Source of the DNA: Thermoanaerobaculia bacterium
GTDB lineage: Bacteria > Acidobacteriota > Thermoanaerobaculia > Gp7-AA8
Assembly (NCBI GenBank): GCA_034665065.1
Contig: JAXDGL010000001.1
Coordinates: 34,691 to 98,690, forward strand
DNA length: 64,000 nucleotides
Direction of reading: 5' to 3'
The position numbers were made by a program, and so were the translations under genes. The notes beneath the pieces were generated by a model. That model ran no database searches, was not told the DNA's origin, and was given only the letters and a program-made list of their open reading frames with translations. Position 1 is the stretch's first letter; the number at the start of each line of letters is the position of its first letter. Shown here piece after piece: positions 2,911 through 63,097 of the stretch.

Positions 2911-4581
2911 ATGAGCGAAAGTCCAGCCCTTCCCGAGACGCGCAACAAGACCGAGCACGTCTTCCCGGTTCTCACGCCGGCGCAGATCGCGCGCATCGCG
3001 CCGCTCGGACGCGTGAGGCCGATTCAGGCAGGCGAAGTGCTGCTCGAAGCGGGGGAACAGGCCGATCACTTCTTCGTCATCCTTTCCGGGCGTCTCGACA
3101 TTCTTCGTACAACCGACGGAACGGAGTCGCTCGTGGTGTCGCACGGTCCGGGCATGTTCAGCGGCGACGTCAACATGCTGTCGGGCCGCCCAACGCTCGT
3201 ACGCATGCGCGCCGGAGAAACGGGCGAAGTCATCGAGCTCGATCGCGAGCACCTCATGTCGCTCGTACAAACCGACAACGAGCTGGGCGAGATCCTCATG
3301 CGCGCCTTCATCCTCCGGCGCGTGGAGCTGATCGCACGGGGTGTCGGCGGTGTCATTCTGATCGGATCGACGCACACGCAGGGGACGCTGCGCATCAAAG
3401 AGTTCCTCACGCGCAATGGCCATCCCTACAACTACATCGACCTCGATACGGACTCCGACGTTCAGACTCTGCTCGATCGATTTCACGTCAGCGTCGATGA
3501 CGTACCGGTGTTGATCTGCCGCGGCGAATTCGTCCTCCGAAATCCTTCCAATGAGAAGATCGCCGACTGTCTCGGCTTCAACGACGCCATCGATGAGGTG
3601 CACCAGCGCGATGTGGTCATCGTCGGCGCCGGTCCCGCCGGACTCGCCGCCGCCGTCTACGGCGCGTCCGAAGGCCTCGACGTTCTCGTGATCGAGTCGA
3701 ACGCACCCGGCGGCCAGGCCGGCGCCAGTTCGAAGATCGAAAACTACCTCGGCTTCCCCACCGGCATCAGCGGACAGGAGCTGGCCGGCCGCGCCTACAC
3801 GCAGGCACAGAAATTCGGAGCGCAGGTGATGATCGCGCGCGGCGCGAAGGAGCTCTCCTGCAGCCGCCGTCCGTTCGCCATCCTGCTCGAGAACGGATCG
3901 CGTGTTCCCGCGCGGACAGTGATTATCGCCACCGGCGCCGATTACCGGCGGCTGGCGATCGACAACCTGGCGCGATTCGAAGGCGCCGGCATTTACTACG
4001 GCGCGACGTTCGTCGAATCGCAGGCATGCGCAGCCGAGACAGTTGCCATCGTCGGCGGAGGAAACTCGGCGGGACAGGCGGCAGTGTTTCTCGCCGAGCA
4101 TGCGCAGCGCGTATTCATCTTCGTGCGCCGCGAAGGGTTGGATGAAACGATGTCGCGCTATCTCATCCGCCGCATCGAACAGAATCCGCGCATCGAGCTG
4201 CGAACGCGCACGGAAGTCGTCGCACTCGAAGGCGAGGATCACCTCGAGCGGATCCGCTGCCGCGATCACGCGGAGAAAGCCGAGACTCTGAACATCCGCC
4301 ATCTCTTCGTCATGACAGGTGCGGTGCCCAGCACGAAATGGCTGGACGGCTGTGTGACGCTCGACGAGAAAGGCTTCATCCGCACCGGCCCCGATTTAAC
4401 GCCCGAACATCTCGCCGCCGCCGGCTGGCCTCTGAAACGCGCGCCGTACCTCCTCGAGACAAGCCTCCCCGGCGTCTTCGCCGTCGGCGACGTAAGATCC
4501 GGCAACGTCAAGCGCGTCGCCTCGGCGGTCGGCGAAGGCTCGATCGCGATCTCGTTCGTACATCGTGTGTTGCACGAGTAG
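2911..4581 (+). CDS. cNMP-binding domain / thioredoxin-fold / FAD-dependent thioredoxin-reductase-like fusion
   Basis: N-terminal cNMP-binding-like fold (GEVLLEAGEQADHFFVILSG...GMFSGD). GAGPAG FAD motif, GGGNSAG NAD(P)H motif, C-terminal TSLPGVFAVGD. Confidence 0.85.
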   Translation: MSESPALPETRNKTEHVFPVLTPAQIARIAPLGRVRPIQAGEVLLEAGEQADHFFVILSGRLDILRTTDGTESLVVSHGPGMFSGDVNMLSGRPTLVRMRAGETGEVIELDREHLMSLVQTDNELGEILMRAFILRRVELIARGVGGVILIGSTHTQGTLRIKEFLTRNGHPYNYIDLDTDSDVQTLLDRFHVSVDDVPVLICRGEFVLRNPSNEKIADCLGFNDAIDEVHQRDVVIVGAGPAGLAAAVYGASEGLDVLVIESNAPGGQAGASSKIENYLGFPTGISGQELAGRAYTQAQKFGAQVMIARGAKELSCSRRPFAILLENGSRVPARTVIIATGADYRRLAIDNLARFEGAGIYYGATFVESQACAAETVAIVGGGNSAGQAAVFLAEHAQRVFIFVRREGLDETMSRYLIRRIEQNPRIELRTRTEVVALEGEDHLERIRCRDHAEKAETLNIRHLFVMTGAVPSTKWLDGCVTLDEKGFIRTGPDLTPEHLAAAGWPLKRAPYLLETSLPGVFAVGDVRSGNVKRVASAVGEGSIAISFVHRVLHE

Positions 4582-4808: not shown

Positions 4809-7118
4809 CTACTCGACAACCGGCCTCGGCAAGGGCGGCTTCAGGCCGCGACTCCAGTGGCGGTGAGCGGCGATCGCGGCGATGAAACCTGCGGCGAAGG
4901 AGCGGCCCCGCGTCTTCGAGGTGACGACGCCCGCCAATGGATCGGCATCGGGCCCCGCCTCCGGATGCGCTTTCGCATTCGTGATACCGGCGGCATCGAG
5001 GAGCTTCACGCCGGCACCGCTTGCAGCGATCGGCTTGTAGTGCTTGAACGCGTCCTGCAGGAACTCGATCGCGGCGGGCTCATTCATCAACGCGGCGATT
5101 GCGGCGTCGCCGCCAGCGACGTAGACGGCATCGAAAAAGACCGAGCTCGCGGTGAGGATGCTGAACTCGGCATTCATCGGCGCGCCATCCGCGCCGGAAA
5201 AGGCGCCAACGTGGCGGCCGACGAGCCGCGGCATCGCTCCTTCGGCCATCAATGCCTTCTTCATTGCGTCGATGTCAGCGGGATCGCTCCCTTCCGCGAC
5301 CAGGATGGCCACCTTGCGTGTGCGAATGTTCGGTTCAGGCTTGTTCGGAGTGAGCAGCATGCTCGTGGCCGGCGATGTCTCGACGTTGCGATTGACCGGT
5401 TTCGGCTGCCAGTCGCGCGGATTTGCATCGGCGGGGAAGCTCATGTTCAGCGGACCGCTGATCCGGGGGATCTTCTTCATCCCCAGTCCTTCGGCGACAC
5501 GCTGCGCAAGGCCCATGTCGACCTGTGAAAGCATCGCCACCATCCGTTCGCGAACGGCGACGGTCCCGCAGTGTCCCAGTTCGAACTGAAGCGCCTGAAT
5601 GATGTGCTCCTGTTCCGGCGCCGACTGACTCCTGAAAAACTGCAGCGCCTGCGTGAAGTGATCGAAGAATTTTTCGCTGCGCGCTCCCCGCACTTTGGTT
5701 CCCGCCAGCGCTTCCGGATGCGAGACGAAACCTCCGCTCTTGGAGCCAGCCTGAAACGGACAGCCGCCGCCGAGTGTGTTCGGCTCGTAGGCGACGCGTC
5801 CTTCGTTAATGGTCTGGCGCATCTGCCCATCGCGTTGAAGGTTGTGGACCGGAGCGACGGGACGGTTGATGGGGATCTCGTTGAAGTTGGGTCCACCGAG
5901 ACGCTTGAGTTGCGTGTCGAGGTAGGAGAATAGCCGGCCCTGCAGGAGCGGATCATCGCTGAAGTCGATGCCCGGAACGATGTGCCCGAGGTGAAAGGCG
6001 ACCTGCTCGGTCTCAGCGAAGAAATTGTCGGGGTTGCGGTTCAGCGTCATCTTCCCGATGCGGCGGACCGGCACGAGCTCCTCAGGAATGAGCTTCGTGG
6101 AGTCGAGAATGTCGAAATCGAATTTGTGCTCGTCCGCTTCGGGCACGATCTGCACGCCCAGCTCCCACTCCGGAAAGTCGCCACCGGCGATCGCATCCCA
6201 CAGATCGCGGCGATGAAAATCGGGGTCCTTCCCCGAGATCTTCTGCGCCTCGTCCCAGACGACGGAGTGCATACCCTGCAACGGCTTCCAGTGAAACTTC
6301 ACGAAGCACGACTTGCCGGCTTCATTGACGAAACGAAAGGTGTGGACGCCGAAGCCTTCCATCATCCGGAGGCTGCGGGGAATGGCGCGGTCCGACATCA
6401 CCCACATCACCATGTGCATCGCTTCCGGCATGAGCGAGATGAAATCCCAAAAAGTGTCGTGCGCCGACGCGGCTTGCGGGACTTCGTTGTGCGGCTCCGG
6501 CTTCACCGCATGGATCAGGTCGGGGAACTTCAGCGCGTCCTGGATGAAGAAAACAGGGATGTTGTTGCCGACGAGATCGACGTTTCCCTCGTCGGTGTAG
6601 AACTTCGTGGCGAAGCCGCGAACGTCGCGAGCGAGATCGGAAGAGCCGCGTGAACCGGCTACCGTCGAGAACCGGACGAAGACGGGCGTCTCACGCGAAG
6701 GATCTGTCAAAAAGCGCGCTTTGGTGAAGCGCTTCATCGAGTCGTCGTAAACACGGAAAATGCCGTGCGCCGCAGACCCACGCGCGTGAACGATGCGCTC
6801 CGGGATCCGTTCATGATCGAAGTGCGTGATCTTCTCCCGGAGGTGAAAATCTTCGATCAGCGTCGGACCGCGCACGCCTGCACGGAGCGAATTCTGGTCG
6901 TCCTCCATTCGCAGGCCCTGGTTCGTAGTGAGGAAGTGATCGTCGGAGCTCTCGCGGTCGCGTTCCAGCTCGTCCAACTTCCTATTGCTCGTCGTGGATC
7001 GGGCGCGCCGTTCCTTTTCTGCGTCCGATTTCGATGCGCTTGCTTCGGTGCGCGCATTCGGCGCGGTCCCGCGCGGTTTGGCTTCCTTCGTTGGTGCAGT
7101 TCGCTTCGCTTTTGCCAT
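4809..7118 (-). CDS. katE: Large-subunit catalase (HPII type) with C-terminal DJ-1/PfpI-like domain
   Basis: [15 protein letters not shown] catalytic His motif, RLFSYLDTQ heme-ligand motif, C-terminal flavodoxin-like domain. Start at MAKAK with GGGGGA SD. Confidence 0.95.
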
Positions 7119-7254
7119 TGGTCCCCCTTGGCGCAGTCTGAACCGCGCGCCACGTGGGCAATGCGCAAGGCTTGCCATGAGGGAACGACCGGCTACTCTT
7201 CGGTCGAATCGTTTTCCGCGCAGCGACCAGCTCCCCCGGATCGTCCGGCCGGCA

Positions 7255-7980
7255 TCACCGCGCAATCACGAGCAGCGTGAGGTCATCGTAGCGCGCGCCG
7301 CCGGCGTGGCGCGAGGCCGCATCACGGATCGCCGATGCGATCTCGCGAACGCACGACGATGCGGGGAGCGCTCGCATTACTCCTTCGACGCCGAACTCCG
7401 GTCCGTCGGGAGCGGCAGCTTCGATGACGCCATCGCTATAGAGAATGATCTGATCGCCAGGTGCCAGCGAGAGCGTTGCCGACACCCATCGCGAGGACTC
7501 GACGATCCCGACGACCGGACCTGTCGCGTCGATCTCTTCGATGCGGCCGTCGGCGCGGCGGATCATCGGCGGGCAATGGCCCGCATTGACGATCGTCATC
7601 ACGCCATCGTCCCGCAGCCAGCCGATGACGGCGGTGGCGAAGCGATTCGAGGGGAGCAGCGGCTTGAGAAACTGATGCAGACGCTGCATCGTCGTCGCCG
7701 GATCGCATCCGGCGCGCGCGCACGAGGCGATGCGGCGTTCCAACTCCTCCTGGATCATCGCCATCACCAGCGCGGCTGGCAGTCCCTTGCCCGCGACGTC
7801 GCCGAGGGCGAACCAGAGCCTGTCACCGGTGCGATGCGTGAACCAGAAGTCGCCGGTGAACATGCGCGAGGGGATCGAGATGGCGTGGACGTCGAATGTC
7901 GCGGTCACGTGGTTGCGCGCGCGGCGCGGCGTCGCAGTCGCGCGTGGGAGTGGCTCGATCTCGAATACTGAAGCAGTCAT
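7255..7980 (-). CDS. Stand-alone PP2C/SpoIIE-type (RsbU-like) Ser/Thr phosphatase
   Basis: GDF, LGDVAGKGLPAA, NAGHCPP, LYSDGVIEA and DDLT motifs; GGAG SD before ATG 7980. Confidence 0.9.
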   Translation of the reverse strand: MTASVFEIEPLPRATATPRRARNHVTATFDVHAISIPSRMFTGDFWFTHRTGDRLWFALGDVAGKGLPAALVMAMIQEELERRIASCARAGCDPATTMQRLHQFLKPLLPSNRFATAVIGWLRDDGVMTIVNAGHCPPMIRRADGRIEEIDATGPVVGIVESSRWVSATLSLAPGDQIILYSDGVIEAAAPDGPEFGVEGVMRALPASSCVREIASAIRDAASRHAGGARYDDLTLLVIAR

Positions 7981-12296: not shown

Positions 12297-12429
12297 GGGT
12301 GTCGGGTGTCGGCTGTCAGGTGTCGGGTGTCGGGTGTCGATGACTCGTTGGCTGGCGCGGCCGACCGCGCGCAGCTCGAACCACTAATCCACTGATCACT
12401 AATCCACTGATCACTGATCACTGATCACT
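12297..12429. repeat. Opposed heptamer tandem arrays: (GGGTGTC)x6 and (CACTGAT)-type x~7
   Basis: Read directly at 12297-12338 and 12381-12429 in the macA-macB intergenic region. Confidence 0.9.
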
Positions 12430-12434
12430 CATCG

Positions 12435-13673
12435 CTAGCCCTTCTTATCCCCGCTCGCTCCTTCGCCTTCCTTCTCTTTCTGCTCCTTCACCTTCGTCCC
12501 ATCCTTCAACTCACGCAACGCGCGGAAGGGGCCGGTGATGATTTGCTGTCCTTCCTTTGCGCCGCTCACAATCTCGATCGCGCTGTCGCCGGAAAGGCCT
12601 GTCGTGACGGTCTCGAACTTCACGGCGCCGTTCTCATTGATGAAGACGCCTTCCTCATCCTGCGGCTTGCCGGGCGCACTTCCTTTTTTTTCGCGGACGA
12701 CAAGGGCCTGGACCGGGATCGCCAGAGCTTTGGTGCGCGTGCCGGTGATGATGTCTGCCGACGCGGAGAAGCCGGGACGAACACCGGGCGGCGGATTCTC
12801 GATCTGGATCTTGACCTCGAAGTTCACCGCCTCCGTGCTGCCGCTTCCGGAAAGGCCGTTTCGTTTGATGGGACTCGATGCCACCTCGGTCACGAGGCCG
12901 GGGAACGTCTTGTTCGGATAGGCGTCGATCGTGACGTTGGCGCGCTGGCCGACTTTCACCGCCGGAACGTCGGTCTCGTCAACCTCCATCACTGCTTCGA
13001 CGACGCTCATGTCGGCGATCGTCATGAGCACGGTGCCGGCGTTGTTCATCGTTCCGATGACGGCGACTTCCCCTTCCTCTACGGGAAGAGCGGTGACGAT
13101 GCCGGCCATCGGCGCGCGCATCGTCGTCTTCTGCAGTGTGTCGCGCGCGGCGTTGAGGTTCTCGCGCGCCTGGCTGATGCGCTGCTCGAGCGCCATCACG
13201 TTGGCGCGCGCGGAGTCGCGAGCACTCTGGGCGCGATCGAGGTCGGCGCGGGGAATGATCTTCTGATCGAAGTTTTTCTGCGCGCGCTGAAAGTCCTGTT
13301 CCGCGGCGATCGCCTGCGCTTTCGCGGCATCGCGGTCGGAGAAGACCGCCTGGAGCGCGGCGTCGGCGCTGCGCGCGGAGGCAGCGAGTTGCTTCTGATC
13401 GATCTGCAGAAGGAAGTCGCCCTTCTTGACGACGTCGCCCTCGCGCACGGCCAGGTTGACGACCTGCCCCATCACGTTCGCGGAAAGATCCACTTTGCGT
13501 TTGGCGTCGATGCGCCCGTTCGCGGAGACCTTGCTCGTCAAATCCTGCCGCTTCACGTTGCCGAAGGTGACGGGCGTGATGTCTTTGCCGCGATTCGATA
13601 CAAATCCGGCAGTGACCATGCCCGCAACGACGAGCACGACCACTCCGATGATGATTTTGGTGCGACGCCTCAT
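12435..13673 (-). CDS. Efflux periplasmic adaptor subunit (MacA/HlyD family)
   Basis: N-terminal TM anchor, lipoyl-like GQVVNLAVREGDVVKKGDFL, alpha-hairpin, and TMRAPMAGIV motif. Confidence 0.92.
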   Translation of the reverse strand: MRRRTKIIIGVVVLVVAGMVTAGFVSNRGKDITPVTFGNVKRQDLTSKVSANGRIDAKRKVDLSANVMGQVVNLAVREGDVVKKGDFLLQIDQKQLAASARSADAALQAVFSDRDAAKAQAIAAEQDFQRAQKNFDQKIIPRADLDRAQSARDSARANVMALEQRISQARENLNAARDTLQKTTMRAPMAGIVTALPVEEGEVAVIGTMNNAGTVLMTIADMSVVEAVMEVDETDVPAVKVGQRANVTIDAYPNKTFPGLVTEVASSPIKRNGLSGSGSTEAVNFEVKIQIENPPPGVRPGFSASADIITGTRTKALAIPVQALVVREKKGSAPGKPQDEEGVFINENGAVKFETVTTGLSGDSAIEIVSGAKEGQQIITGPFRALRELKDGTKVKEQKEKEGEGASGDKKG

Positions 13674-18123: not shown

Positions 18124-18821
18124 GCTGTCATCCTGAGACTGCCGGAGCCGCCGCAAGTTTCGCTGCGATCGCTACCAGCAGGCGTCGGCGGCGGAGGACG
18201 TCGAAGGACCCCCTTCCTACATTCCGATTGGGTGGTGAGGAAAAGCGCGGCACGTGGGCGGGGGATCCTTCGACCGTCCTCCGCCGCGAACCCTGCTGAT
18301 GCAAACGCAGCGTGAAGGCGCGGCTTCGGCGGCTCAGGATGACAGGTCATAGGCGGGGGGTCCTTCGACCGTCCTCCGCCGCGAACCCTGCTGATGCAAA
18401 CGCAGCGTGAAGGCGCGGCTCCGGCGGCTCAGGATGACAGGTCATAGGCGGGGCCTCCTTCGACCGTCCTCCGCCGCGAAGCCTGCTGATGCAAACGCAG
18501 CGTGAAGGCGCGGCTTCGGCGGCTCAGGATGACAGATCAGGCGGGGGGTCCTTCGACCGTCCTCCGCCGCGAACCCTGCTGATGCAAACGCAGCGTGCAG
18601 GCGCGGCTTCGGCGGCTCAGGATGACAGGTTAGGCGGGGGGTCCTTCGACCGTCCTCCGCCGCGAACCCTGCTGATGCAAACGCAGCGTGAACGCGCGGC
18701 TCCGGCGGCTCAGGATGACAGGTCATAGGCGGGGCCTCCTTCGACCGTCTTCCGCCGCGAACCCTGCTGATGCAAACGCAGCGTGCAGGCGCGGCTTCGG
18801 CGGCTCAGGATGACAGGTCAT
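18124..18821. repeat. REP family B (GTCATCCTGAG-type) cluster: one inverted copy plus six tandem 93-95 bp direct units
   Basis: The anchor tccttcgacc recurs at 18266, 18361, 18456, 18549, 18642 and 18737, and each unit ends in ggcggctcaggatgac. The inverted copy starts at about 18124. Confidence 0.93.
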
Positions 18822-19598: not shown

Positions 19599-19630
19599 GG
19601 CGGCGAATTGTAATCGTAGAATCCACAACC

Positions 19631-20149
19631 ATGGCGCAAACAACATTGTTCAGCAAGGCAGATATCGACCGTCGTGTCGCGGAAATGGGCGCAGAGATCA
19701 CCAAAGACCTGGCCGGGAGCGATCTCATCGCGCTCTGCGTGCTCAAAGGGGCGATGTTCTTCTGCAGCGACTTGATGCGGCAGATTGGATTCGATGTCGC
19801 CCTCGACTTCATCCAGATCTCGTCGTACGGCAATCAGAAGACGTCGTCCGGCGTCGTGACGATTCTGAAAGAACCGCAGCTCGACATGCGCGATCGCACG
19901 GTGCTGATCATCGAAGACATCATCGACAGCGGCCTGTCGATGAAGGAAGTCTTCCGCTACATCAAGCTCGACCGCGGTGCGAAGGAAGTGCGAACGGCCA
20001 CATTCCTCGACAAACCTGCCGCGCGCAAGGTCGAGTTCCAGGCCGACTACATCGGGTTTTCCATCGACCCGAAGTTCGTCATCGGCTATGGGCTGGACTA
20101 CGCGGAGAAGTATCGGAACGTGCCGGAGATTCAGGTATTGGAAGAGTGA
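19631..20149 (+). CDS. hpt: Hypoxanthine phosphoribosyltransferase
   Basis: LCVLKGA, VLIIEDIIDSG PRPP-binding motif, FVIGYGLDYAEKYRN. Confidence 0.95.
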   Translation: MAQTTLFSKADIDRRVAEMGAEITKDLAGSDLIALCVLKGAMFFCSDLMRQIGFDVALDFIQISSYGNQKTSSGVVTILKEPQLDMRDRTVLIIEDIIDSGLSMKEVFRYIKLDRGAKEVRTATFLDKPAARKVEFQADYIGFSIDPKFVIGYGLDYAEKYRNVPEIQVLEE

Positions 20150-20616
20150 AGAACCAAGAGTGAAGGGTGAAGAGTGAAGAGTGAAAGGAATGACCGAACC
20201 GAAACGCGATCTTCCGGAGCGGACCTTTGAATTTTCTCGTCGTGTCGTCAAGCTGTGTCAGAAGCTTGATCAATCTCCCGGTGTCAGTCGAACGCTCGCT
20301 CATCAGATTCTTCGCGCCGCTTGCTCGGTGGGAGCGAACGTTCAGGAGGGCCAGGGAAGTCAGAGCCGCGCTGATTTCATTTCGAAATACTCCATCGCCT
20401 GCAAAGAAGCGCGCGAAACTCACTACTGGCTGAGACTTCTATCAGAAGCCGGCGTAGTTCCCGCAGACCGCCTCTTGCCACTCATCGAAGAAGCAAATCA
20501 GCTCGTCGCAATCCTGACGACTATCGTTAGGAAAACTCGCGCCAACAACAAAAGGGCTCAAGGCTGACGCAAGAATTTCACTCTTCACTCTTCACTCTTC
20601 ACTCTTCACTCTTCAC
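20141..20616. mobile_element. Cassette bounded by inverted heptamer arrays (GAAGAGT)n / (TTCACTC)n enclosing a four-helix-bundle gene
   Basis: Arrays at 20141-20186 and 20576-20616 are reverse complements of each other. Confidence 0.6.
20190..20567 (+). CDS. Four helix bundle protein (23S rRNA IVP-like family)
   Basis: RTFEFSRRVV...QILRAACSVGANVQEG...SRADFISKYSIACKEARETHYWLRLL. Confidence 0.92.
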   Translation: MTEPKRDLPERTFEFSRRVVKLCQKLDQSPGVSRTLAHQILRAACSVGANVQEGQGSQSRADFISKYSIACKEARETHYWLRLLSEAGVVPADRLLPLIEEANQLVAILTTIVRKTRANNKRAQG

Positions 20617-21437
20617 TTCAAGTACTTCGTCATCAACATCGCGATCATCGCCGCGCCGAGTACGTAGCGGTAGTAGATGAACACATGCGTCGTGTGCGTG
20701 CGCAGGAAGCGGATCAGGAACCAGATCGATGCGTAGCCGGAGATGAAGGCCACGACGATGGCCACGGCGATCGGTGTCCATCCGAGTGCGCCGAGGGCGT
20801 GGCGCTCCTTGAAGAGCTCGAGCACGCCGGCGCCCCCAACTGCGGGAATCGACAAGAGAAACGAATAGCGCGCCGCAGTCGGGCGATCGATCCCTCGGAA
20901 AATCGCCGGCATGATCGTCGAGCCGCTCCGTGACGATCCCGGAATCAAGGCCAGGCATTGCCCGAGGCCGATGACGACGGCGTCCGTCACCGTCATGTCA
21001 TCAAATCCTCGCAGCTTCCGCCGCTTCGCATACCCCTCGGCGATCTGCATCAGGATCGCGACCACGATCACCATCGTCGTCACGATCCACAATCCGCGAA
21101 ACGTCGACTCGATGTGCTTCTTGAACAAGAGGCCGAGGACGACGATGGGAATCGTGCCGATGATGACGAGCCAGGCCTCGCGCGAGTCGGTGTCGATCAG
21201 AATCCGGCGCGTCATCAACCCGCGAAAGAAGCCGCCGATGAGCCGAACGATGTCGCGGAAGAAATAGATGATCGCCGCGAGCAGCGTGCCGAACTGAATC
21301 ACCGCCGAGACTGCGGCACCGGGATCGCCCCATCCGAGAACAGACGGAACGATGAGCAGATGCGCGGTCGAGCTGACGGGGATGAATTCGGTCAGGCCCT
21401 GAACGAGGCCGAGGACGATGGCTTCGGTGATGGTCAT
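20613..21437 (-). CDS. uppP: Undecaprenyl-diphosphate phosphatase
   Basis: LGLVQGLTEFIPVSSTAHL, QCLALIPGSSRSGST and AARYSFLLSIP motifs. Confidence 0.96.
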   Translation of the reverse strand: MTITEAIVLGLVQGLTEFIPVSSTAHLLIVPSVLGWGDPGAAVSAVIQFGTLLAAIIYFFRDIVRLIGGFFRGLMTRRILIDTDSREAWLVIIGTIPIVVLGLLFKKHIESTFRGLWIVTTMVIVVAILMQIAEGYAKRRKLRGFDDMTVTDAVVIGLGQCLALIPGSSRSGSTIMPAIFRGIDRPTAARYSFLLSIPAVGGAGVLELFKERHALGALGWTPIAVAIVVAFISGYASIWFLIRFLRTHTTHVFIYYRYVLGAAMIAMLMTKYLK

Positions 21438-21472: not shown

Positions 21473-21549
21473 GTTGTCGGTTGTCGGTTTTCTGTTGTCA
21501 GAACCGCACATAGCCGACAACTGATAACCGATAACCGACAACCGACAAC
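21473..21549. repeat. Inverted heptamer arrays (GTTGTCG)x4 / (CGACAAC)x5 with a 13-nt loop
   Basis: Read directly, between the rnj stop and the uppP start. Confidence 0.9.
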
Positions 21550-21560
21550 TCCAGGAAAAA

Positions 21561-23255
21561 CTACATCTCCCAGATCACTGGGAGAATCATCGGTCTGCGT
21601 CCCATCGACTTGCGGAAATACCGTTTGAGCAGACTGCGCATTCTCTCCTGCACCAGATCGCTGTCGCGCAATTCGTCGGGACCGCACGCGTGCAGCATCT
21701 GCACGAGTTGTGCGCGAACCTCGGCCAGGATGTCCTGACTCTCGTCGACGTGCAGCAGTCCGCGCGTGATGATCTCCGGTTCGCGTCCGATGTGGCCGTT
21801 CGAATCGATCGCCGTCACCACGATCACGAATCCATCCTCGGCCAGATGCTGCCGGTCGCGGACGACGATCTCCGGCACTTCCTCCGCCTCGCCGTCGATG
21901 AAGACTTTGCCGTAAGGGACGCGCTCTTCGAGGACGCGAATCTCGTCGCCGGCGATCTCCGCCACCTGGCCGTTGGTGATCACAATCCCGTGCGGCACGC
22001 CGACGCTCTTCGCCAGACGGGCGTGATGAATGAGATGACGCAGCGTGCCGTGAATGGGGATGAAGAATTTCGGCCGCGTGACGTTGAGCATCAGCTTCAA
22101 CTCTTCCTCGCAGGCGTGACCGGAGACATGAACGTCGGCGTTCTCCCAGTTCAACACTTCGGCGCCGCGGCGATAGAGGTTGTCGATGACATGCGAGACG
22201 GCGCGCTCGTTTCCCGGAATCGTGCGCGCCGAAAGGATAACGACGTCGCCGCGCTTGATCTCGACCGACTTGTGCTCGCCGATGGCCATGCGCGAGAGCG
22301 CGGATCGCGGCTCCCCCTGGGTTCCTGTCGTGAGAATGAGCACTTCGTGATCGGCATAGTCGGACGGCTTGGCGTTCGCGCCAGGACGTTGTTCGCGCGC
22401 GATGCGCAGATAGCCGAGACGCTCGGCCGTTTCGGCGTTGTCGACGAGCGAGCGTCCGATGAGAAAAACCTTGCGCTTGTGCTTGCGCGCGGCATCGACA
22501 ACCTGCTGCACGCGATGGATGTGCGACGCGAAGGTCGTGAGGATGATGCGCCCGGTGAGATTAGCGAAGAGGTTGTTGAATGAGTTTCCGACTGTTTTCT
22601 CTGACGGGCCGTGACCCGGCACGAGCGCGTTGGTGGAGTCGCTCATCAACGCGAGCACACCTTCTTCACCATATGCCGCGAAGCGCGCCAAGTCCGTTCG
22701 CTTGCCATCGACCGGCGTGTGATCGATCTTGAAATCGCCGGTGTGAATGAGCGTTCCCGCAGGCGTGCGAATGGCCAGCCCGATGGCGTCGACGATCGAA
22801 TGCGTGACTTGAATTGCTTCGACGCGGAACACGCCGGCGTCGACGACGTCGCGCGGCATGAACGGCCGGAGCTCGACATTCTCGATCCCGAACTCTTCGA
22901 GCTTGTCGCGGACGAAGCCGAGCGTCAGCGGCATTCCGTACACGGGCACATTCACTGTCTCGACGAGGAACGGAATCGCGCCGATGTGGTCTTCGTGTCC
23001 ATGCGTGAGAAACACAGCCTTCACACGCTCGGGGCGGTCGAAGAGATACGTCATGTCGGGAACGATGACGTCGACGCCGAGCGTGGCGGCATCGGGAAAC
23101 ATCATGCCGCAGTCGACGAGGATGGCGTCATCGCCGTACTCGTAGACCATCAGGTTCATCCCGATCTCGCCGAGTCCGCCGAGGGGAATGATTCTCAATG
23201 CGCCTGGCGGCGCGTTATCGGTTGTCGGTTGCCGGGTGTCGGTATCTGCAGTCAT
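21561..23255 (-). CDS. rnj: Ribonuclease J
   Basis: IIPLGGLGEIGMN, THGHEDHIG, HTGDFK, TFASHIHR and HVSGHA motifs. Confidence 0.96.
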   Translation of the reverse strand: MTADTDTRQPTTDNAPPGALRIIPLGGLGEIGMNLMVYEYGDDAILVDCGMMFPDAATLGVDVIVPDMTYLFDRPERVKAVFLTHGHEDHIGAIPFLVETVNVPVYGMPLTLGFVRDKLEEFGIENVELRPFMPRDVVDAGVFRVEAIQVTHSIVDAIGLAIRTPAGTLIHTGDFKIDHTPVDGKRTDLARFAAYGEEGVLALMSDSTNALVPGHGPSEKTVGNSFNNLFANLTGRIILTTFASHIHRVQQVVDAARKHKRKVFLIGRSLVDNAETAERLGYLRIAREQRPGANAKPSDYADHEVLILTTGTQGEPRSALSRMAIGEHKSVEIKRGDVVILSARTIPGNERAVSHVIDNLYRRGAEVLNWENADVHVSGHACEEELKLMLNVTRPKFFIPIHGTLRHLIHHARLAKSVGVPHGIVITNGQVAEIAGDEIRVLEERVPYGKVFIDGEAEEVPEIVVRDRQHLAEDGFVIVVTAIDSNGHIGREPEIITRGLLHVDESQDILAEVRAQLVQMLHACGPDELRDSDLVQERMRSLLKRYFRKSMGRRPMILPVIWEM

Positions 23256-23310
23256 GTTCGCGGGACTCCGATGCTATCGCACCGACAACGGACAACCGAC
23301 AACCGAGAAC
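23214..23310. repeat. Inverted heptamer arrays spanning the rnj start codon
   Basis: (GTTGTCG)-type at 23214-23247 inside the CDS; (CGACAAC)-type at 23283-23310 upstream. Confidence 0.85.
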
Positions 23311-29564: not shown

Positions 29565-29639
29565 AAACCGTTTCACGCGGAGACGCGGAGGCCGCGGAGA
29601 AAAGCACCGCGCTCTCCGCGTCTCCGCGTGAAACGGTTT
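29565..29639. repeat. Family A palindromic element
   Basis: aaaccgtttcacgcggagacgcggag...ctccgcgtctccgcgtgaaacggttt. Confidence 0.92.
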
Positions 29640-31459: not shown

Positions 31460-31468
31460 GTGGAGTTT

Positions 31469-31817
31469 CAGTGATCAGTGATCAGTGATCAGTGATCAGT
31501 GGTCAGTGGTCAGTGGTCAGTGATCAGTGGTCAGTGGTCAGTGGTCAGTGATTATCAGTGATCAGTGGTTGGTGGTTGGTGGTTGGTGGGTAAGTAGACA
31601 GCGATGAACAAAAGCTGCCTCAGCGACAGAGTTTTCGTATCCGTATTTCTACTCAGCACAAACTCTCCTGACCACTGATCACTAACCACTGACCACTTTC
31701 TCTTCGGTAGTCGCTAGAGAAAAAGAGAGGCTCGGCACCAAGGTCAAGAGTTTTGGAGTCCGTATTCGATTTTCAAGCGAACCCTCCTGATCACTGATCA
31801 CTACCCACTGATCACTG
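31469..31817. repeat. Long (CAGTGRT)n heptamer array (31469-31590) plus two opposite-orientation arrays (31668-31697, 31787-31817)
   Basis: Read directly from the sequence. Confidence 0.92.
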
Positions 31818-38748: not shown

Positions 38749-41358
38749 ATGACTGCTACCCTCGAAACAGCAGCCCGCAAAACCCCCTTGCTTGCGCGAT
38801 TCGCGGCCTTCGTCGCGGAACGGCATCCGCTCGCGCTGCGGCCCGCGGTGACGGCGCTCGATATGGCTATGAGTGGCCATATCGACAACGAGTGGGACGC
38901 CGCGGAGATCGACGCCCTTCGCGATCCGCTGCGCCGCATCCTCAACCAGACTCTCTCCGATTTTCTCTCGCCCGATGCCAGCGCCGCACCAAAGCTCATG
39001 GGCGCTGTTCCCGAAACAACGCCCGGAGTCCTCGTCAGCGAACGCCTCCATCAGGCCGTCGCAGAGGTCGTCGACGCGTGCGACGGATTCCTTCGCCGCG
39101 AAGCGATCACGGCGTCACTCAGCGCGGATGAAAAGCGCGAAATGCTGCGCGGAATGATCCTCACGCGCGCCACCGACAACCGGCTCAAGCAATTCTTCAC
39201 CGGTGGCGAAGTGCGCTACGGCTCCGGAACGTTTCAGGGGAAAGGGTTTCGCTCTCTCGGTCAGGAGGCGATTTACGCCGCCGCGATTCGTCTGCGACGC
39301 GGCGAGGAGTTCGTTTCCGCCGACGGCTGGCGCGGCGATGTCGTCTCCCCCATGATCCGCGACCTCGGCGTCGTCCTGTCCATGCACAACGATCCATCCA
39401 CCGTGCGCATGGTCCTCAGCGCGCAAATGGGCAAAGCCGGTCCGCCGATGAACGGCAAAGACCTCCACGTCGGCGACTGGTCGCGCGGGATTTTTCCGGC
39501 GATGGCGCCACTGGGATCGCCGGCGCTGACGATCGCCGGAATCGCGATGGCGTTCTCGCGGGAGTCGGGAGTCGGGGGTCGAGGGTCGGAGAAAGATCCG
39601 CTCGATTCACGCACAGACACGAATGATTCTCCCTCCGACACCCGACACCCGAAAATCGACACCCGCGTAGCCATCTCCTTCATCGGCGAAGGCGCCACAT
39701 CCCTCGGCGAATGGCACGAGGCGATCAATGCCTGCGCCGCGCGCAAGCTGCCTGCGATCTTTTGCGTCCAGAACAACCAGACGGCGCTCTCGACGACGCA
39801 ACGCGAACAGTCCGCCGTGCGCGTGTTCGCCGACAAAGCGATCGGCTACGGCATCCCGGCGATCACGATCGACGGCACCGATCCCGAAGCGATCGCCGCA
39901 GCGTTCGCGTGGGCAACGGAACGAGCGCGCGCCGGCGAGGGCCCCGCACTCATCGAGCTCGTGGCGATGCGCATGTGCGGTCATGCCCATCACGATGACA
40001 TGCTCTACCTAGGCAAAGATCCGCAGCAATCGTGGACGTATCCGCCGCTGACGGAGAGCGGCTATGCGAACCGTGATCAGTACGAATACTGGTGCCGCAA
40101 AGATCCGATCCCGACGTACGCCGCCAAACTCCAGACCGAAGGAGTCATCGCCGCCGGAGATCTGGAGCGTTTTCAACGCGAGGCCGAAGAGTTGGTGGAG
40201 AGGGAAGCGCGCGCCGTCATCGACGCGCCATGGCCTGACGCCGAGTTGGCCGGCAGCGGCGTGCTTGCAAACGAGCCGCGCCGCGTTCACATCGAAGTGC
40301 TGGATGAAAGCGTGCGCCATGCTGCGGCGAAGAACATCGGACTACCTCCGATCGAGGAAGCGCCGGCGTTCGATGCGAAAGGCAGGACGTTCCTCGAAGC
40401 GGTGATGCTCGGCGTCGGCGATGCGTTACGCAGCGATCCGCGCACGTTCGTCTACGGCGAAGATGTCGGGGGCAAGTACGGCAACGCCTTCCTTCTTCTC
40501 AAACCGCTGATGAAGGATTTCGGCGATCGGATCATGAATTCGATTCTCTCCGAGGGAGCGACGCTGGGCGTCTGCATCGGCGCGGCGCTGACGGGGATGC
40601 GGCCAATCGGCGAGATTCAGTTCAACGACTTCGTCGCCACCGGATTCAATCAGCTCGTCAACAACGCCGCGAAGATCCGCTACCGCTGGGGCGGATCGGT
40701 TCCGATGGTCGTACGCATGCCGTGGGGCGGATTGCGTCACGCCGGCCCGTTCCATTCGCAAAACACGGAAGCGTGGTTCTACCGGACGCCGGGATTGAAA
40801 ATCATCGCGCCGTCGACGCCTTACGATGCGCGCGCGCTGATGGCCAGCGCTGTCGCCGATCCCGATCCGGTTTTGTATTACGAGCACATCGCGCTCTACC
40901 GCGATCCGCGAGTGAAGCAACTGCTCTCCGATGGTGCACCGCCGCCCATTCCGATCGGCAAGGCGGCTCTGCGACGCAGCGGCAACGATCTCGCCATCAT
41001 CTCGTACGGCGCGTATGTACACGTCGGAATGCGCGTCGCCGAGACGCTGGCGAAGGATGGGATCGAGTCGTCGGTTCTCGACCTTCGCTCCCTCGCGCCG
41101 CTCGATCGCGCTGCGGTGCTGGCCGTGGCGCGCCACTGCAACCGCGTGCTGATCATCGAAGAAGACACACGCACTGGATCGATCGGCGAGTCGCTCGCGG
41201 CGATCATCCAGGAAGAGGCGTTCGAGTATCTCGACGCGCCCATCCGCATCATCGGCGCGCTCGACACGCCCGTGCCATATTCGCCGCCGCTCGAGGAAGA
41301 GTTCCTGGCGCGCGAGGGGCAGATCGAGAACGCGGCGCGATTGCTGGTCAACTATTGA
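38749..41358 (+). CDS. TPP-dependent 2-oxoacid dehydrogenase E1, fused alpha+beta subunits
   Basis: GQEA, FIGEGATS...NN TPP motif, GHAHHD, VYGEDVG, GEIQFNDF and DLRSLAPLD motifs. Confidence 0.92.
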   Translation: MTATLETAARKTPLLARFAAFVAERHPLALRPAVTALDMAMSGHIDNEWDAAEIDALRDPLRRILNQTLSDFLSPDASAAPKLMGAVPETTPGVLVSERLHQAVAEVVDACDGFLRREAITASLSADEKREMLRGMILTRATDNRLKQFFTGGEVRYGSGTFQGKGFRSLGQEAIYAAAIRLRRGEEFVSADGWRGDVVSPMIRDLGVVLSMHNDPSTVRMVLSAQMGKAGPPMNGKDLHVGDWSRGIFPAMAPLGSPALTIAGIAMAFSRESGVGGRGSEKDPLDSRTDTNDSPSDTRHPKIDTRVAISFIGEGATSLGEWHEAINACAARKLPAIFCVQNNQTALSTTQREQSAVRVFADKAIGYGIPAITIDGTDPEAIAAAFAWATERARAGEGPALIELVAMRMCGHAHHDDMLYLGKDPQQSWTYPPLTESGYANRDQYEYWCRKDPIPTYAAKLQTEGVIAAGDLERFQREAEELVEREARAVIDAPWPDAELAGSGVLANEPRRVHIEVLDESVRHAAAKNIGLPPIEEAPAFDAKGRTFLEAVMLGVGDALRSDPRTFVYGEDVGGKYGNAFLLLKPLMKDFGDRIMNSILSEGATLGVCIGAALTGMRPIGEIQFNDFVATGFNQLVNNAAKIRYRWGGSVPMVVRMPWGGLRHAGPFHSQNTEAWFYRTPGLKIIAPSTPYDARALMASAVADPDPVLYYEHIALYRDPRVKQLLSDGAPPPIPIGKAALRRSGNDLAIISYGAYVHVGMRVAETLAKDGIESSVLDLRSLAPLDRAAVLAVARHCNRVLIIEEDTRTGSIGESLAAIIQEEAFEYLDAPIRIIGALDTPVPYSPPLEEEFLAREGQIENAARLLVNY
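39559..39665. repeat. In-frame inverted heptamer element inside the E1 CDS
   Basis: (CGGGAGT)-type at 39559-39589 and (CCGACAC)-type at 39635-39665. Confidence 0.8.
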
Positions 41359-48008: not shown

Positions 48009-49097
48009 ATGACGCTCGACGATTTTCTGAGGCGAGAGATCGAAGTGGGAAGTTTCCCCGGCGCCGTCTACGCGATCGGCTCCTCCCGCGGTATCGAGCG
48101 CGAGAACGCGTTGGGAAACGCGGTGGCAGTGCCGCTGCGGATTCCGGCCACTCTCGACACGCTCTACGACTGCGCGTCGATCACGAAGCCGCTCGTCACC
48201 GCAACGCTCGCGCTGCAACTGCTCGATCTCAATCCATACGTTCGCAGCCTGCTCACGCATACATCGGGCATGCGCGCCTGGCTGCCGCTCTACCTCTACG
48301 ACAACTATCTCGACGCCATCCGCGAACACGGCCCGGAGTACGAGCCCGGCACGCGCGTCATCTACTCCGATCTGAATTTCGTTCTCCTATGGTCGATGCT
48401 CCCGGATTTCGTCTCTCTTGCACGCGAACGAATCTTCGCGCCGCTCGGAGTCGAGCACGACGCGATGTTCCATCCGCTGTCATCGGAGCGTCCCCGGATC
48501 GCCGCGACGGAGTGGGGACAGCGGTACGAGGCGAAGATGGCTGCGACCAGTGGTCAGCGGACAAGTGATCAGTGGTCAGTGATCAGTGATCAGGGGCAGA
48601 GTGGCCAGCGGCCTGGTTCCAGCGGCCATCGGCCAGCAGTCAGCGGTCAGGAGCAGCCCGTTGTTCGCGCGTCGGCCTTCGCGCAGCGCGATGGTTTGAT
48701 CTGGGGCGAGACGCACGATGGCAACTCGCACTTTGCCGGAGGGACGGCCGGCAACGCCGGCCTCTTCGCCACTGCACGTTCGGTGTTCCGCCTCGCGCAA
48801 TCGTGGGTTAGCGCGGAGCTGCTGTCGCGCGCGCTCATCGATGAAGCGACCTCGAATCTAACTCCCGGCCTCCCCGACGCCCGCGGCCTCGGATGGCAGA
48901 AACCGACCGGAAGCCTGGCGACGTCAATGCTTTCGGACCGAGCCTACGGCCACACTGGATTCACCGGAACGTCCGTCTGGATCGAGCCGGAGCGCGAACG
49001 CATCATGGTGCTGCTGACGAATCGCGTACATCCCTGCGCCGCGCCGATCGCGATGCAGCGGATACGGGGGGAGTTTCATCGGTGGGCGCTACAGTAG
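48009..49097 (+). CDS. Serine hydrolase (beta-lactamase-related family)
   Basis: ASITK (SxxK), LLTHTSG, YSDLNF and GHTGFTG motifs. Confidence 0.9.
   Translation: MTLDDFLRREIEVGSFPGAVYAIGSSRGIERENALGNAVAVPLRIPATLDTLYDCASITKPLVTATLALQLLDLNPYVRSLLTHTSGMRAWLPLYLYDNYLDAIREHGPEYEPGTRVIYSDLNFVLLWSMLPDFVSLARERIFAPLGVEHDAMFHPLSSERPRIAATEWGQRYEAKMAATSGQRTSDQWSVISDQGQSGQRPGSSGHRPAVSGQEQPVVRASAFAQRDGLIWGETHDGNSHFAGGTAGNAGLFATARSVFRLAQSWVSAELLSRALIDEATSNLTPGLPDARGLGWQKPTGSLATSMLSDRAYGHTGFTGTSVWIEPERERIMVLLTNRVHPCAAPIAMQRIRGEFHRWALQ
48548..48651 (+). repeat. In-frame (CAGTGRT/CAGCGGY) heptamer array inside the serine hydrolase CDS
   Basis: About 14-15 units of the same family as 31469-31590. Confidence 0.85.
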
Positions 49098-49693: not shown

Positions 49694-51313
49694 ATGCGAA
49701 TCCTTCGCGTGAAGTTCATCCTCCCCGCTCTCACCGAAGCGACCTCTCCCTTCTTCCGTCCGATCAAGTACTCGCTCTTTACGCCTCTCGGGTTGGCGAC
49801 GCTCGCTGCCTACCTCGGGCCGGACGACGACGCGCGCATCGTCGATGAGCATGTGGAGGTGCTCGGCACAGACGACCGACCGGATCTCGTCGTGATTCAG
49901 GTCTACATCACCAACGCCTATCGCGCCTATCGCATCGCTGACACCTATCGAGCCAAAGGCTGCTTCGTCGCGCTCGGCGGACTGCACGTGACGTCTCTTC
50001 CGACTGAGGCGGCGGCGCACGCGGACGCGATCTTCATCGGCCCGGGCGAACAGACGTTTCCGAAGTTCCTCGATGACTTTCGCGCCGGCCGCGTCGAGCG
50101 CGTTTATCGTTCGACAAGCGGCCGCACACTCGATCGCGTGCCTCCGATCCGCCGCGATCTCATCAAGCGCCGCAACTACCTCGTGCCGAACTCGATCGTC
50201 GTCACGCGCGGCTGTCCGCAACATTGCGACTTCTGCTACAAGGACGCGTTCTTCGAAGGCGGCCGCGGGTTCTACACGCAGCGCGTCGACGATGCGCTGG
50301 CCGAGATCGCGCGCCTTCCGGGCCGCCATCTTTACTTTCTCGACGATCATCTCCTCGGCGATGTCCGCTTCGCCCGCGCCCTCTTCGACGGGATGCGTGG
50401 CATGAATCGCCTCTTTCAGGGCGCAGCGACGGTCGACTCGATCCTTCGCGGCGATCTGATCGAACATGCCGCTGCCGCCGGTCTGCGCAGCATCTTCGTC
50501 GGCTTCGAAACGTTGACGCCCGGCAATCTCGCGCGCAGCAACAAGCGCCAGAACCTCGGCCGCGACTATCGCGCCGTCGTCAACCGCCTGCACGCCCTCG
50601 GCATCATGATCAACGGCAGCTTCGTCTTCGGCATGGACGATGACGGCGAGGATGTCTTTCGCCGCACCGTCGATTGGGCGATCGAGAATGGTCTCACCAC
50701 GGCCACGTTTCACATCCAGACGCCGTATCCCGGGACGAAGTTGTACGCGCAGATGCAGGCGGACAAACGGCTCACCACGAGCAACTGGGATCTGTACGAC
50801 ACGCGGCACGTTGTCTACAAGCCCGCGCGTCTGTCGCCCGCGGCGCTGGAGAAGGGCTATAACTGGGCATACCGCGAGTTCTACCGATGGTCGTCGATCG
50901 CGCGCGCGTCGTTGACGCATGGATCGGTGAAACATCAGACGAAGCACTTCTTCTATGCCGCCGGCTGGAAGAAGTTTGAGGCCTTGTGGAACTTCGTCAT
51001 TCGCATGAAACAACTGCGCAAGATGACGCCGATGCTGGAGGCGGTGCTGGCGAAGGTGACGGCGTCGGAGGCTGATGAAGTCAAAAGCATTTCACGCGGA
51101 GACGCGGAGGCCGCGGAGAGAGGCAACCCCGCGTTCTCCGCGTCTCCGCGTGAAACGGTTTTGACTCTTCGCTACGCACCCCACGCGCTCCCCGGCGCCC
51201 ATTCCGCGGCCTTTGCGCGCAATGCGGCCGCGCGCGCGGAGTCGCCGGCGGCTTCGGAGAGCGCGGCGAACATCACCAGCGTTTCGGCGAGGAGTGGGTC
51301 GGGATCGGTGTAG
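49694..51313 (+). CDS. B12-binding domain radical SAM protein with a repeat-derived C-terminal extension
   Basis: GGLHVT cobalamin-binding region, RGCPQHCDFC (CxxxCxxC) and TPYPGT motifs. Confidence 0.9.
   Translation: MRILRVKFILPALTEATSPFFRPIKYSLFTPLGLATLAAYLGPDDDARIVDEHVEVLGTDDRPDLVVIQVYITNAYRAYRIADTYRAKGCFVALGGLHVTSLPTEAAAHADAIFIGPGEQTFPKFLDDFRAGRVERVYRSTSGRTLDRVPPIRRDLIKRRNYLVPNSIVVTRGCPQHCDFCYKDAFFEGGRGFYTQRVDDALAEIARLPGRHLYFLDDHLLGDVRFARALFDGMRGMNRLFQGAATVDSILRGDLIEHAAAAGLRSIFVGFETLTPGNLARSNKRQNLGRDYRAVVNRLHALGIMINGSFVFGMDDDGEDVFRRTVDWAIENGLTTATFHIQTPYPGTKLYAQMQADKRLTTSNWDLYDTRHVVYKPARLSPAALEKGYNWAYREFYRWSSIARASLTHGSVKHQTKHFFYAAGWKKFEALWNFVIRMKQLRKMTPMLEAVLAKVTASEADEVKSISRGDAEAAERGNPAFSASPRETVLTLRYAPHALPGAHSAAFARNAAARAESPAASESAANITSVSARSGSGSV
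51080..51165. repeat. Family A palindromic element read through in frame by the radical SAM ORF
   Basis: gtcaaaagcatttcacgcggagacgcggag...ctccgcgtgaaacggttttgac. Confidence 0.9.
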
Positions 51314-63046: not shown

Positions 63047-63097
63047 CTGATCTCTGATCTCTGACTCTCTGATCACTGACTCTCTGATCACTGAATC
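63047..63097. repeat. Heptamer/octamer tandem array (CTGATCT/CTGATCA)
   Basis: Read directly from the sequence. Confidence 0.85.

Follow-up and report, generated by a model that had tools for sequence, protein, structure and literature searches.

Why should a small gene of a protein family named after intervening sequences in 23S rRNA lie between two convergent housekeeping genes, and why should inverted arrays of a 7-nt repeat press so closely on both of its ends? The question is posed by a 125-aa four-helix-bundle (4HB) gene and its flanking repeats – together referred to here as the cassette – in a 64,000-nucleotide stretch of a Thermoanaerobaculia bacterium contig (JAXDGL010000001.1), which we call the window. 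23S intervening sequences (IVSs) that contain an open reading frame (ORF) have been known since the early 1990s and have long been suspected of being mobile; to our knowledge, their mobility has never been shown. An earlier reading of the window, made from the letters alone (the sequence-only reading), described the family as first seen in such IVSs and as having no established function, in agreement with the literature (PMC4990558; PMC10053308). On our best reading, the locus was acquired horizontally as a discrete unit and is the counterpart, outside rRNA, of the 23S rRNA IVSs that bear an ORF; that it represents a mobile cassette of the IVS type, promoterless and with the arrays for ends, has in our estimate a probability of roughly 0.6. 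Comparison with relatives and homologues shows acquisition as a unit, exchange at the same site and an architecture that recurs throughout the family.

In the window, the 4HB gene (20190..20567, + strand; PF05635 / TIGR02436, ‘23S rRNA intervening sequence protein’, Avd-like) is preceded by a left array (20141..20189, +) with the units GAAGAGT, GAAGAAC, CAAGAGT, GAAGGGT, GAAGAGT, GAAGAGT and GAAAGGA, and followed, 9 nt after its stop codon, by a right array (20577..20617, +) of TTCACTC, the reverse complement of the left. The tight inverted bracketing described in the sequence-only reading is confirmed by Tandem Repeats Finder (TRF) – which returns a period-7 array of GAAGAGT at 20141-20185 (6.4 copies, 78% match) and 5.9 copies of the right-hand unit (100% match) – and by an inverted-repeat search, which pairs arms of 42 nt each (20145-20186 / 20576-20617) that are 90% complementary and spaced 389 nt apart. 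Both neighbouring genes do terminate, as had been stated, in the outermost units: hpt (hypoxanthine/guanine phosphoribosyltransferase-type; 19628..20149, +; PF00156 Pribosyltran, E 4.7e-26) takes its final two codons and its stop, at 20147-20149 within the left array, from the first heptamer units (GAA GAG TGA), and uppP/bacA (undecaprenyl-diphosphatase; 20613..21437, − strand; PF02673, E 1.8e-81) has its stop (TGA, read as TCA on the + strand) at 20613-20615, in the outermost right-array unit, with its Leu-Lys codons TTGAAG continuous with that array. At the inner end, the final left-array unit blends into a Shine–Dalgarno (SD)-like AAGGA, and the ATG follows 3 nt further on.

These repeats are peculiar to the cassette. 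The word TGAAGNNTGAAGNNTGAAG (three TGAAG cores at 7-nt spacing, with up to two mismatches) occurs eight times in the 64-kb window, always within the two arrays, against a mean of 0.07 in shuffled sequence, in which eight was never attained; the window holds no TGAAG-type array elsewhere and no second 4HB gene. The codon usage of the cassette is foreign: the ORF, correctly described before as more AT-rich, has a GC content of 0.54 (window 0.62) and a third-position GC content (GC3) of 0.55, compared with 0.80 in hpt and 0.84 in uppP. The arrays also vary in copy number between otherwise identical genomes, in that L001, another assembly from this organism, matches the window at 100% over 6.4 kb and departs from it in the right array alone, with ten units (3388-3463) against five in the window (20577-20617) – a difference that is either a true copy-number polymorphism or the result of assembly collapse.

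How the cassette came to occupy the hpt-uppP junction can be approached through relatives that lack it. A metagenome scan with uppP gave 67 related loci; relatives whose uppP is 86-96% identical keep the convergent hpt and, where rnj is visible, the rnj-uppP order, and the junction was classified in the 34 that keep hpt and uppP convergent and adjacent. The empty site that the sequence-only reading suggested looking for is present in five of them (L088, L089, L090, L095, L117), with overlapping stop codons (ctgtcggatTAGccCTTCAgata) and 5 nt separating the last codons; hpt there ends in LSD and uppP in YLKG before the stop, compared with LEE and YLK in the window. These empty sites hold a single native TGAAGGG or TGAAAGG, which encodes the Leu-Lys-Gly of uppP, and because this single unit sits in the empty sites and is continuous with the right array in the window, the sequences suggest that a pre-existing TGAAG unit at the uppP end acted as the insertion target. 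Six further junctions (L105, L094, L087, L132, L092, L091) carry a gene-less hairpin of the same heptamer, built as (GAAGRGT)3-6, a loop of ~20 nt and (TTCACYC)4, and L138 retains a remnant with about two units per side. The remaining junctions hold hairpins of GTTGCTG or GTTGTCG, three kinds of long palindrome resembling the repetitive extragenic palindromic (REP) type, or CGGGAGT arrays with unrelated cargo.

Vertical conservation of the gene at this site is not seen: a 4HB gene is present at the junction in just one of the 34 relatives, L129, where it is oriented with uppP rather than with hpt. Aligned by codons, the window and L129 copies are 79% identical in protein, with a nonsynonymous distance (dN) of 0.13 and a synonymous distance (dS) of ~2.1 – hence a dN/dS of ~0.06, indicative of purifying selection – whereas the host genes of the same pair are far closer (dN 0.017 and dS 0.56 for hpt; dS 0.51 for uppP). 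In a distance tree of hpt, the window and L129 are mutually nearest, and junction states are scattered over the rest. The diverged L129 allele and this scatter together indicate that the cassette is gained, lost and replaced far faster than its hosts diverge. Among close relatives, arrays and ORF come and go as one block, and the same site is also occupied, in the opposite orientation, by a much older allele.

Other junctions have complications of their own. In L109, the junction (394 nt) contains the last ~90 nt of hpt plus a REP-like palindrome, triplicated in tandem. That of L102 has inverted CGGGAGT / CCGACCC heptamer arrays around ~350 nt of cargo other than a 4HB gene, and that of L082 has a similar array on the hpt side followed by ~450 nt of different cargo; since the arrays of L102 and L082 accompany other cargo, heptamer arrays are not confined to 4HB genes.

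The architecture extends far beyond this site. More than 2,600 relatives of the 4HB protein were found in databases, the best of them, 65-82% identical, in Acidobacteriota, Nitrosomonadales, Nitrospirota, Desulfuromonadales/Geobacteraceae, Chloroflexota, Verrucomicrobiota, Planctomycetota, Bacillota, Cyanobacteria and others. The sequence-only reading staked its proposal on homologues generally having heptamer flanks, and they do: among 78 close homologues with usable flanks, and with an array taken to be three or more GAAK cores spaced by 7 nt, in the 120 nt upstream, forward-oriented arrays precede the gene in 63 (81%) and reverse-oriented ones in none (0/78), reverse-oriented arrays follow it in 57 (73%), and both flanks are occupied in 51. 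Control windows in the same loci gave 5/1176 and 8/1176 (0.4-0.7%), and the enrichment is limited to period 7, with periods 4-6 and 8-12 essentially absent. An arm has a median of five units (range 3-17), and the arrays lie a median of 9 nt from the start codon and 12 nt from the stop; the units of one array share the TGAAG core and differ at two positions.

Inverted heptamer arrays also flank more distant homologues (30-54% identity), ten from plasmids – cyanobacterial, Chloroflexota, Bacteroidota and spirochaete – and 20 from viral contigs (IMG/VR), albeit with different units: AATTCAA, CAATTCG, AATTCGT, TAGTGAT (16 copies), TTTTAGA, GACCAGT (13 copies), AATCCCC/AATCGTA, ATAACCT (ten copies), TAATGAG (eight copies), TTAGGAG and more. 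In a set of 80 cassettes, the distance between units is correlated with protein identity (Spearman rho −0.42, reached by none of 500 permutations), so gene and repeats are inherited together, and the two arms of a locus are more complementary to each other than arms from different loci (median score 20 vs 14, p 1e-15). Inverted heptamer arrays of fixed inward polarity thus flank the family across phyla and subfamilies, with a unit that co-varies with the protein.

A second subfamily – each of the two PF05635 subfamilies has thousands of matches – provides an unusual variant of the arrangement. Its members match PF05635 and PF22296 (bAvd), are 70-89% identical across phyla and have flanking arrays of the CAGTGG type; they were reached only by starting from the protein, not through array scans of viral contigs. 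In six loci (L415, L416, L417, L418 and L422, each at 1330-2050, and L007 at 6880-7340) the cassette is embedded in the coding region of a DNA methylase (N6_N4), in each case between ‘...FGEPD(I/V)’ and ‘(I/V)HGVDVF...’, and the methylase frame stays open through the ~450-nt cassette in all six. Over the 4HB ORF, the +2 frame is free of stops in seven of seven loci (the six plus L419) at 73-85% nucleotide identity, whereas the +1 frame has 3-8 stops and only one of 81 genes of the first subfamily has an open +2 frame. To judge from these frames, the methylase-embedded cassette looks like a selected, in-frame, dual-coding insertion; an uninterrupted homologue of the cassette-bearing methylase was not present among the loci examined, hence no empty site.

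The protein itself is a confident member of its family. It matches the PF05635 profile with E 2e-21 and 76.7 bits (cut-off 33.8) and TIGR02436, ‘four helix bundle protein’, with 95.3 bits (cut-off 24), and phmmer aligns it to PDB entry 2RLD, which comprises five chains of identical sequence, at E 4e-18. An AlphaFold2 monomer model (pLDDT 90.9) has helices at residues 8-27, 34-55, 60-87 and 92-124, and with this model Foldseek recovers 2RLD (TM 0.80/0.92) and 2GSC (Xcc0516; TM 0.75/0.79, chains A-E matched), the latter a homopentamer (PMC4990558). The kinship with Avd proposed from the sequence holds, but is distant: 4DWL is matched at TM 0.62/0.70 with a marginal E of 0.09, and Avd in the ribonucleoprotein of a diversity-generating retroelement (DGR), 8UBE, is matched as well. 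From the motif GxxRxxxSxxxNxxE, conserved in the family (PMC3936711), R42, S46, N50 and E53 are invariant across 26 close homologues, and R42 and S46 throughout a broad alignment; the leading G is Q39 in the window protein. PF05635 and TIGR02436 were the only profiles matched, and profile and fold searches of the 4HB protein found no HUH/Y1, DDE, serine or tyrosine recombinase signature, nor that of any other nuclease.

At the level of RNA, the arrays plus a few flanking bases are predicted to form a stem of ~47 bp (20133..20627, +) that closes around the whole ORF and holds the SD and start codon at its inner end; the fold of 20130-20630 has a minimum free energy of −190.6 kcal/mol, compared with −153.2 ± 6.3 for shuffles (z −6.0). 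The Coxiella burnetii IVS has three or four tandem GACAGAT units before its S23p ORF, within a 28-bp terminal stem; strains differ in the number of units, and the first repeat is where RNase III cuts (PMC4990558). This IVS is the one experimental precedent that we found. In the window, no promoter-like site was found between hpt and the 4HB ORF, and among homologues the upstream neighbour is codirectional with the cassette in 65 of 77 loci, as judged by crude longest-ORF gene calls. The view of the cassette as a unit with arrays for ends, able to fold its RNA into a long stem, is thereby supported by the junction comparison together with the predicted fold.

How such a cassette might live can be sketched as follows. 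Having been inserted into the overlapping stop codons of the convergent hpt and uppP, it would be transcribed by read-through from the upstream gene, hpt; in the read-through transcript, the arrays would pair into the stem of ~47 bp, with the SD and start codon at its closing end. Processing of this stem, by analogy with the Coxiella heptamer stem cut by RNase III, would then release the cassette mRNA from that of the host and govern its translation. Movement or exchange might proceed by recombination or template switching within the arrays, the target being a site that already holds the same heptamer – the native TGAAG seed at the uppP end or a resident gene-less hairpin – and, since the cassette ends are inverted copies of each other, either orientation of insertion would be possible. 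More speculatively, a pentameric protein could bind the tandem heptamers with one unit per subunit, in the manner of the TRAP ring on its repeats; the median of five units per arm is worth citing beside this idea.

The sequence-only reading went a step further and took the cassette to be the autonomous version of the window's other heptamer elements, on the model of REP-associated tyrosine transposases (RAYTs) and their REP repeats: the 4HB protein would be a trans-acting factor that mobilises or propagates arrays, gene-less arrays and hairpins would be its non-autonomous derivatives, and each repeat class would have its own cognate 4HB subfamily. Several observations fit this comparison. The gene lies between inverted repeat copies as RAYT genes lie between REPs, units resemble each other more where the proteins do, gene-less TGAAG hairpins are found at this junction in the six relatives, and the CAGTGG-type arrays of the second subfamily belong to the same unit class as two gene-less arrays of the window (31465-31593 and 48548-48593), so that a cognate protein for each repeat class is conceivable, if unproven. 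In the source metagenomes, words of the TGAAG arrays are 30-60 times deeper than the 4HB gene – in runs X1 to X3, array words over window positions 20159-20209 and 20567-20617 have a depth of 360-1320, the gene has ~16-21 in X1 and X2, and X3 has no gene coverage – which implies that TGAAG-type arrays are abundant elsewhere in these soil communities; many metagenome contigs link the left array to the right one through unrelated loops of 19-36 nt, as solo hairpins. The window, for its part, contains at least seven other heptamer arrays or hairpins, mostly inverted pairs around short gene-less loops (21473-21549, 23214-23310, 31465-31817, 39558-39665, 48548-48650, 59142-59328, 63047-63094 and 12297-12437, all of period 7). 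As stated, however, the claim is not supported. The units of those arrays differ from that of the cassette (GTTGTCG, CAGTGAT/CAGTGGT in 14 copies, CGGGAGT, AATGTTG, GGGTGTC, CTGATCT), and at least five other unit types have no cognate gene in the window, while its single 4HB gene has a unit type found nowhere else in the 64 kb; 231 stretches of IMG/VR viral contigs (1.9 Mb) with CAGTGRT, GTTGTCG or TGAAGRG arrays, gathered in three scans, contain no 4HB gene; the loops of solo hairpins are unrelated to the cassette; and the fold carries no nuclease or recombinase signature. Arrays are far more widespread than the gene, which neither proves nor excludes protein action in trans, and on balance we consider a RAYT-like role unlikely.

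Two further accounts can be set beside it. One would make the 4HB protein an accessory of restriction–modification (R-M) or CRISPR-Cas systems – for example a nucleic-acid-binding regulator that works with them as Avd does with a reverse transcriptase – with its spread explained by the transfer of defence islands and the hpt-uppP copy as a stray. About half of the codirectional neighbours of close homologues are in fact R-M genes (N6_N4_Mtase 8, HsdM/N6_Mtase 3-5, HSDR_N 3, Methylase_S 3, Eco57I 3, ResIII 5; plus RhuM and Fic), plasmid copies lie between cas2/cas1, csx2/cas1, helicase/N6 methylase and DUF1156/HEPN genes, and genes annotated as 23S_rRNA_IVP have been reported in cas loci (PMC3936711; PMC10910872), although these may simply reflect insertion of the cassette into such operons. 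A PADLOC search of the 4HB protein gave no match, the window copy and others adjoin housekeeping genes (hpt/uppP, GAPDH in six loci, URO-D, dnaA, tRNA clusters), and the arrays are left unexplained; the proposal concerns the role of the protein, is compatible with mobility of the cassette, and seems to us improbable. The other account needs no movement at all: simple repeats generated by slippage would be retained as a hairpin – a bidirectional terminator or RNA stabiliser – at convergent gene ends, and would serve as cis-regulatory sites for a resident regulator. Array copy number does vary, among long simple repeats, those of 7 nt are the commonest in many bacteria (PMC4679880; PMC4692102), and many unrelated hairpins are found in relatives both at the hpt-uppP junction and in the rnj-uppP spacer – the latter empty in ten loci and filled with diverse heptamer hairpins or palindromes in others – which suggests that these sites tolerate or even favour hairpins. 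Yet five relatives manage without any spacer between hpt and uppP, so a hairpin is not required there, and a consensus scan finds no terminator-like site at 20141-20617; gene and arrays were gained together, with foreign GC3, in the opposite orientation and at saturated dS at the same site, and the same architecture surrounds homologues in unrelated contexts and phyla. We therefore regard a purely resident origin as very improbable.

Some of the genomic contexts deserve a record of their own. In a planctomycete locus (L042, 3150-6300), four 4HB cassettes are dispersed among 13 tRNA genes, which lie on the other strand; two of the four are close and two distant paralogues, and every one has a heptamer unit of its own. 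Pairs of cassettes occur in L003, L069, L163, L161, L007 and L010. In the type I R-M operons of L014, L021 and L026, the apparent hsdR frame may, by eye, start at a GTG that overlaps the 4HB stop (GTGA) and read through the right array, to give an N-terminal extension (VTSNFSLPPSNFSEATLVQQ...).

Several points weigh against the mobile, promoterless cassette that we favour. The analysis identified no enzyme for its movement, and a target-site duplication cannot be defined, because the cassette ends are themselves repeats. Origin of the gene-less hairpins by deletion of the ORF was considered and rejected: their loops resembled the SD and 3′ end of the cassette by eye, but local alignment against shuffles was not significant, and with no significant similarity between the loops and the cassette interior, what relates solo hairpins to the cassette is their arrays. 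The sequencing runs that contain the locus are soil DNA metagenomes, with no RNA runs among them. Read-through cannot explain cassettes antisense to their neighbours, such as those in the tRNA cluster of L042 or in the 12 of 77 loci whose upstream neighbour is antisense. The neighbour statistics come from the crude gene calls mentioned above, and part of the spread across phyla may be hitch-hiking, since many close homologues sit in mobile R-M operons.

The arms, too, speak less clearly for RNA pairing than one might wish. Strand-specific wobble as a sign of such pairing was dropped, because mismatches of the G.U type (86) are not in excess of those of the A.C type (78; p 0.58), and mismatches concentrate in the two variable positions of the unit. 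The conserved feature may thus be the TGAAG core and its polarity rather than RNA pairing as such: a stem alone would not require fixed polarity (63:0), so a constraint purely at the RNA level is disfavoured, and the mismatch pattern and polarity agree with a factor by which the TGAAG core is read, at both ends, in a defined polarity. An ‘opposite strands’ joint in the read lay-out was likewise discounted as evidence of inversion, since inverted arrays produce such joints on alignment.

Among known systems, the ORF-bearing 23S IVSs (Leptospira, Coxiella burnetii S23p, Xanthomonas, Brucella) come closest, being likewise a PF05635 ORF within terminal inverted repeats that form a long stem. IVSs are situated inside 23S rRNA, in helix 25 or 45, whereas the cassette lies between two protein-coding genes, both of whose stop codons it supplies; an Rfam scan of the window found no rRNA and no other family. 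Here, moreover, insertion polymorphism, re-insertion in the opposite orientation and gene-less derivatives are seen directly, and no such comparison of IVSs was found in the literature searched. In Coxiella, heptamers (GACAGAT, three to four copies) form the 5′ arm directly before the start codon, as in the cassette (PMC4990558), whereas arrays of the window type are longer, at 6-10 units. On this reading, the locus would be a selfish element of the IVS type that lies outside rRNA and has a defined repeat architecture.

Other likenesses are more partial. REP/RAYT systems (REPINs) share with the cassette a single gene bracketed by inverted short repeats that also exist as gene-less intergenic hairpins; RAYTs, though, are HUH/Y1 enzymes of the IS200/IS605 type, and the window protein, of 125 aa, is a four-helix bundle that lacks any known catalytic motif, and REPs are palindromes of 20-35 nt, as opposed to tandem 7-mers that are not dispersed in the 64-kb window. 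MITE-like elements (MITE, miniature inverted-repeat transposable element) such as the Correia and Rickettsia palindromic elements share presence/absence polymorphism with the gene-less hairpins of relatives; Rickettsia palindromic elements insert in frame into ORFs, and Correia hairpins are substrates of RNase III. Terminal inverted repeats, a target-site duplication and a lack of coding capacity characterise MITEs, a picture with which the solo hairpins of relatives agree. Unlike MITEs, the window element has a conserved gene under purifying selection, and its arms are tandem arrays rather than unique terminal inverted repeats. Integron cassettes, with a single 3′ attC palindrome and an array beside an integrase, are not matched, as the arrays here are symmetric at both ends and no integrase is found among the neighbouring genes. 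Cyanobacterial short tandemly repeated repetitive (STRR) sequences are also heptamer repeats. Heptameric simple sequence repeats – GGGAATC inverted pairs in Xanthomonas, TAACTGA in Beggiatoaceae and cyanobacteria, heptanucleotide elements in Geobacter – are intergenic tandem 7-nt units like the cassette arrays, often end just before start codons, often form hairpin-capable convergent pairs and vary in length between strains; the studies that describe them, in Xanthomonas and Nostoc, in Beggiatoaceae and in Geobacter, tie heptamers to no particular gene (PMC4692102; PMC4679880; PMC2700814), whereas here one family is bracketed, with fixed polarity and a unit that tracks the protein. Avd shares the homologous four-helix-bundle fold – solved relatives are homopentamers – and acts in a ribonucleoprotein with structured RNA (PMC10053308); unlike a DGR, the cassette has no reverse transcriptase or template/variable repeat near it, as judged from neighbouring genes and repeat searches. 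In the literature searched, which treats heptamer repeats apart from genes of this family (in IVSs, cas loci and DGRs), we found no general link of heptamer arrays to the PF05635 family, the Coxiella IVS excepted; curated family descriptions and subscription literature lay outside that search.

Further repeats surround the cassette, whose gene neighbourhood comprises PolyA_pol, FAA_hydrolase, hpt, BacA, RNase J and a tRNA synthetase. A 95-bp unit in six tandem copies (18257-18821, 94% match) lies between the FAA-hydrolase gene and the next gene; it contains GGCGGCTCAGGATGAC, the reverse complement of GTCATCCTGAGCCGCC, which is an arm of the long REP-like palindromes that L105 has in its rnj-uppP spacer and of which L107, L090 and others have near variants. 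ACGCGGAG(G) recurs at 9726, 13751, 29575-29629, 42619, 49613 and 51094-51151, paired with its complement CTCCGCGT, and these small inverted repeats form another family of dispersed palindromic elements. In the CAGTGAT/CAGTGGT array with its two successive inverted partners, the loops at 31594-31667 and 31698-31786 share a motif (agagttttcgtatccgtatt vs agagttttggagtccgtattc), which suggests, from the sequence, a duplicated loop module within 31594-31786.

The locus thus joins three puzzles – the origin and movement of IVSs, the function of PF05635 proteins and the abundance of 7-nt tandem repeats in some bacteria – in a gene that travels with its inverted arrays as a unit: one that enters and leaves a defined site, can lie there in either orientation and has spread to different phyla. 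For annotators, it gives reason to regard intervening sequence protein (IVP) genes in cas, R-M, tRNA and rRNA operons as inserted elements, not as parts of the systems in which they are found. A broader proposition, which we advance tentatively and with more doubt than conviction, is that PF05635 cassettes form a phylum-spanning class of transposase-less mobile elements, in which a ring-shaped 4HB protein recognises its own heptamers and the inverted arrays serve both as recombining ends and as an RNA-processing stem. If this were true, one mechanism would cover the ORF-bearing 23S IVSs, the sporadic ‘CRISPR-associated’ or R-M-embedded IVP genes, a share of heptamer simple repeats (of the STRR, GGGAATC and TAACTGA types) and the in-frame, dual-coding insertions in methylases.

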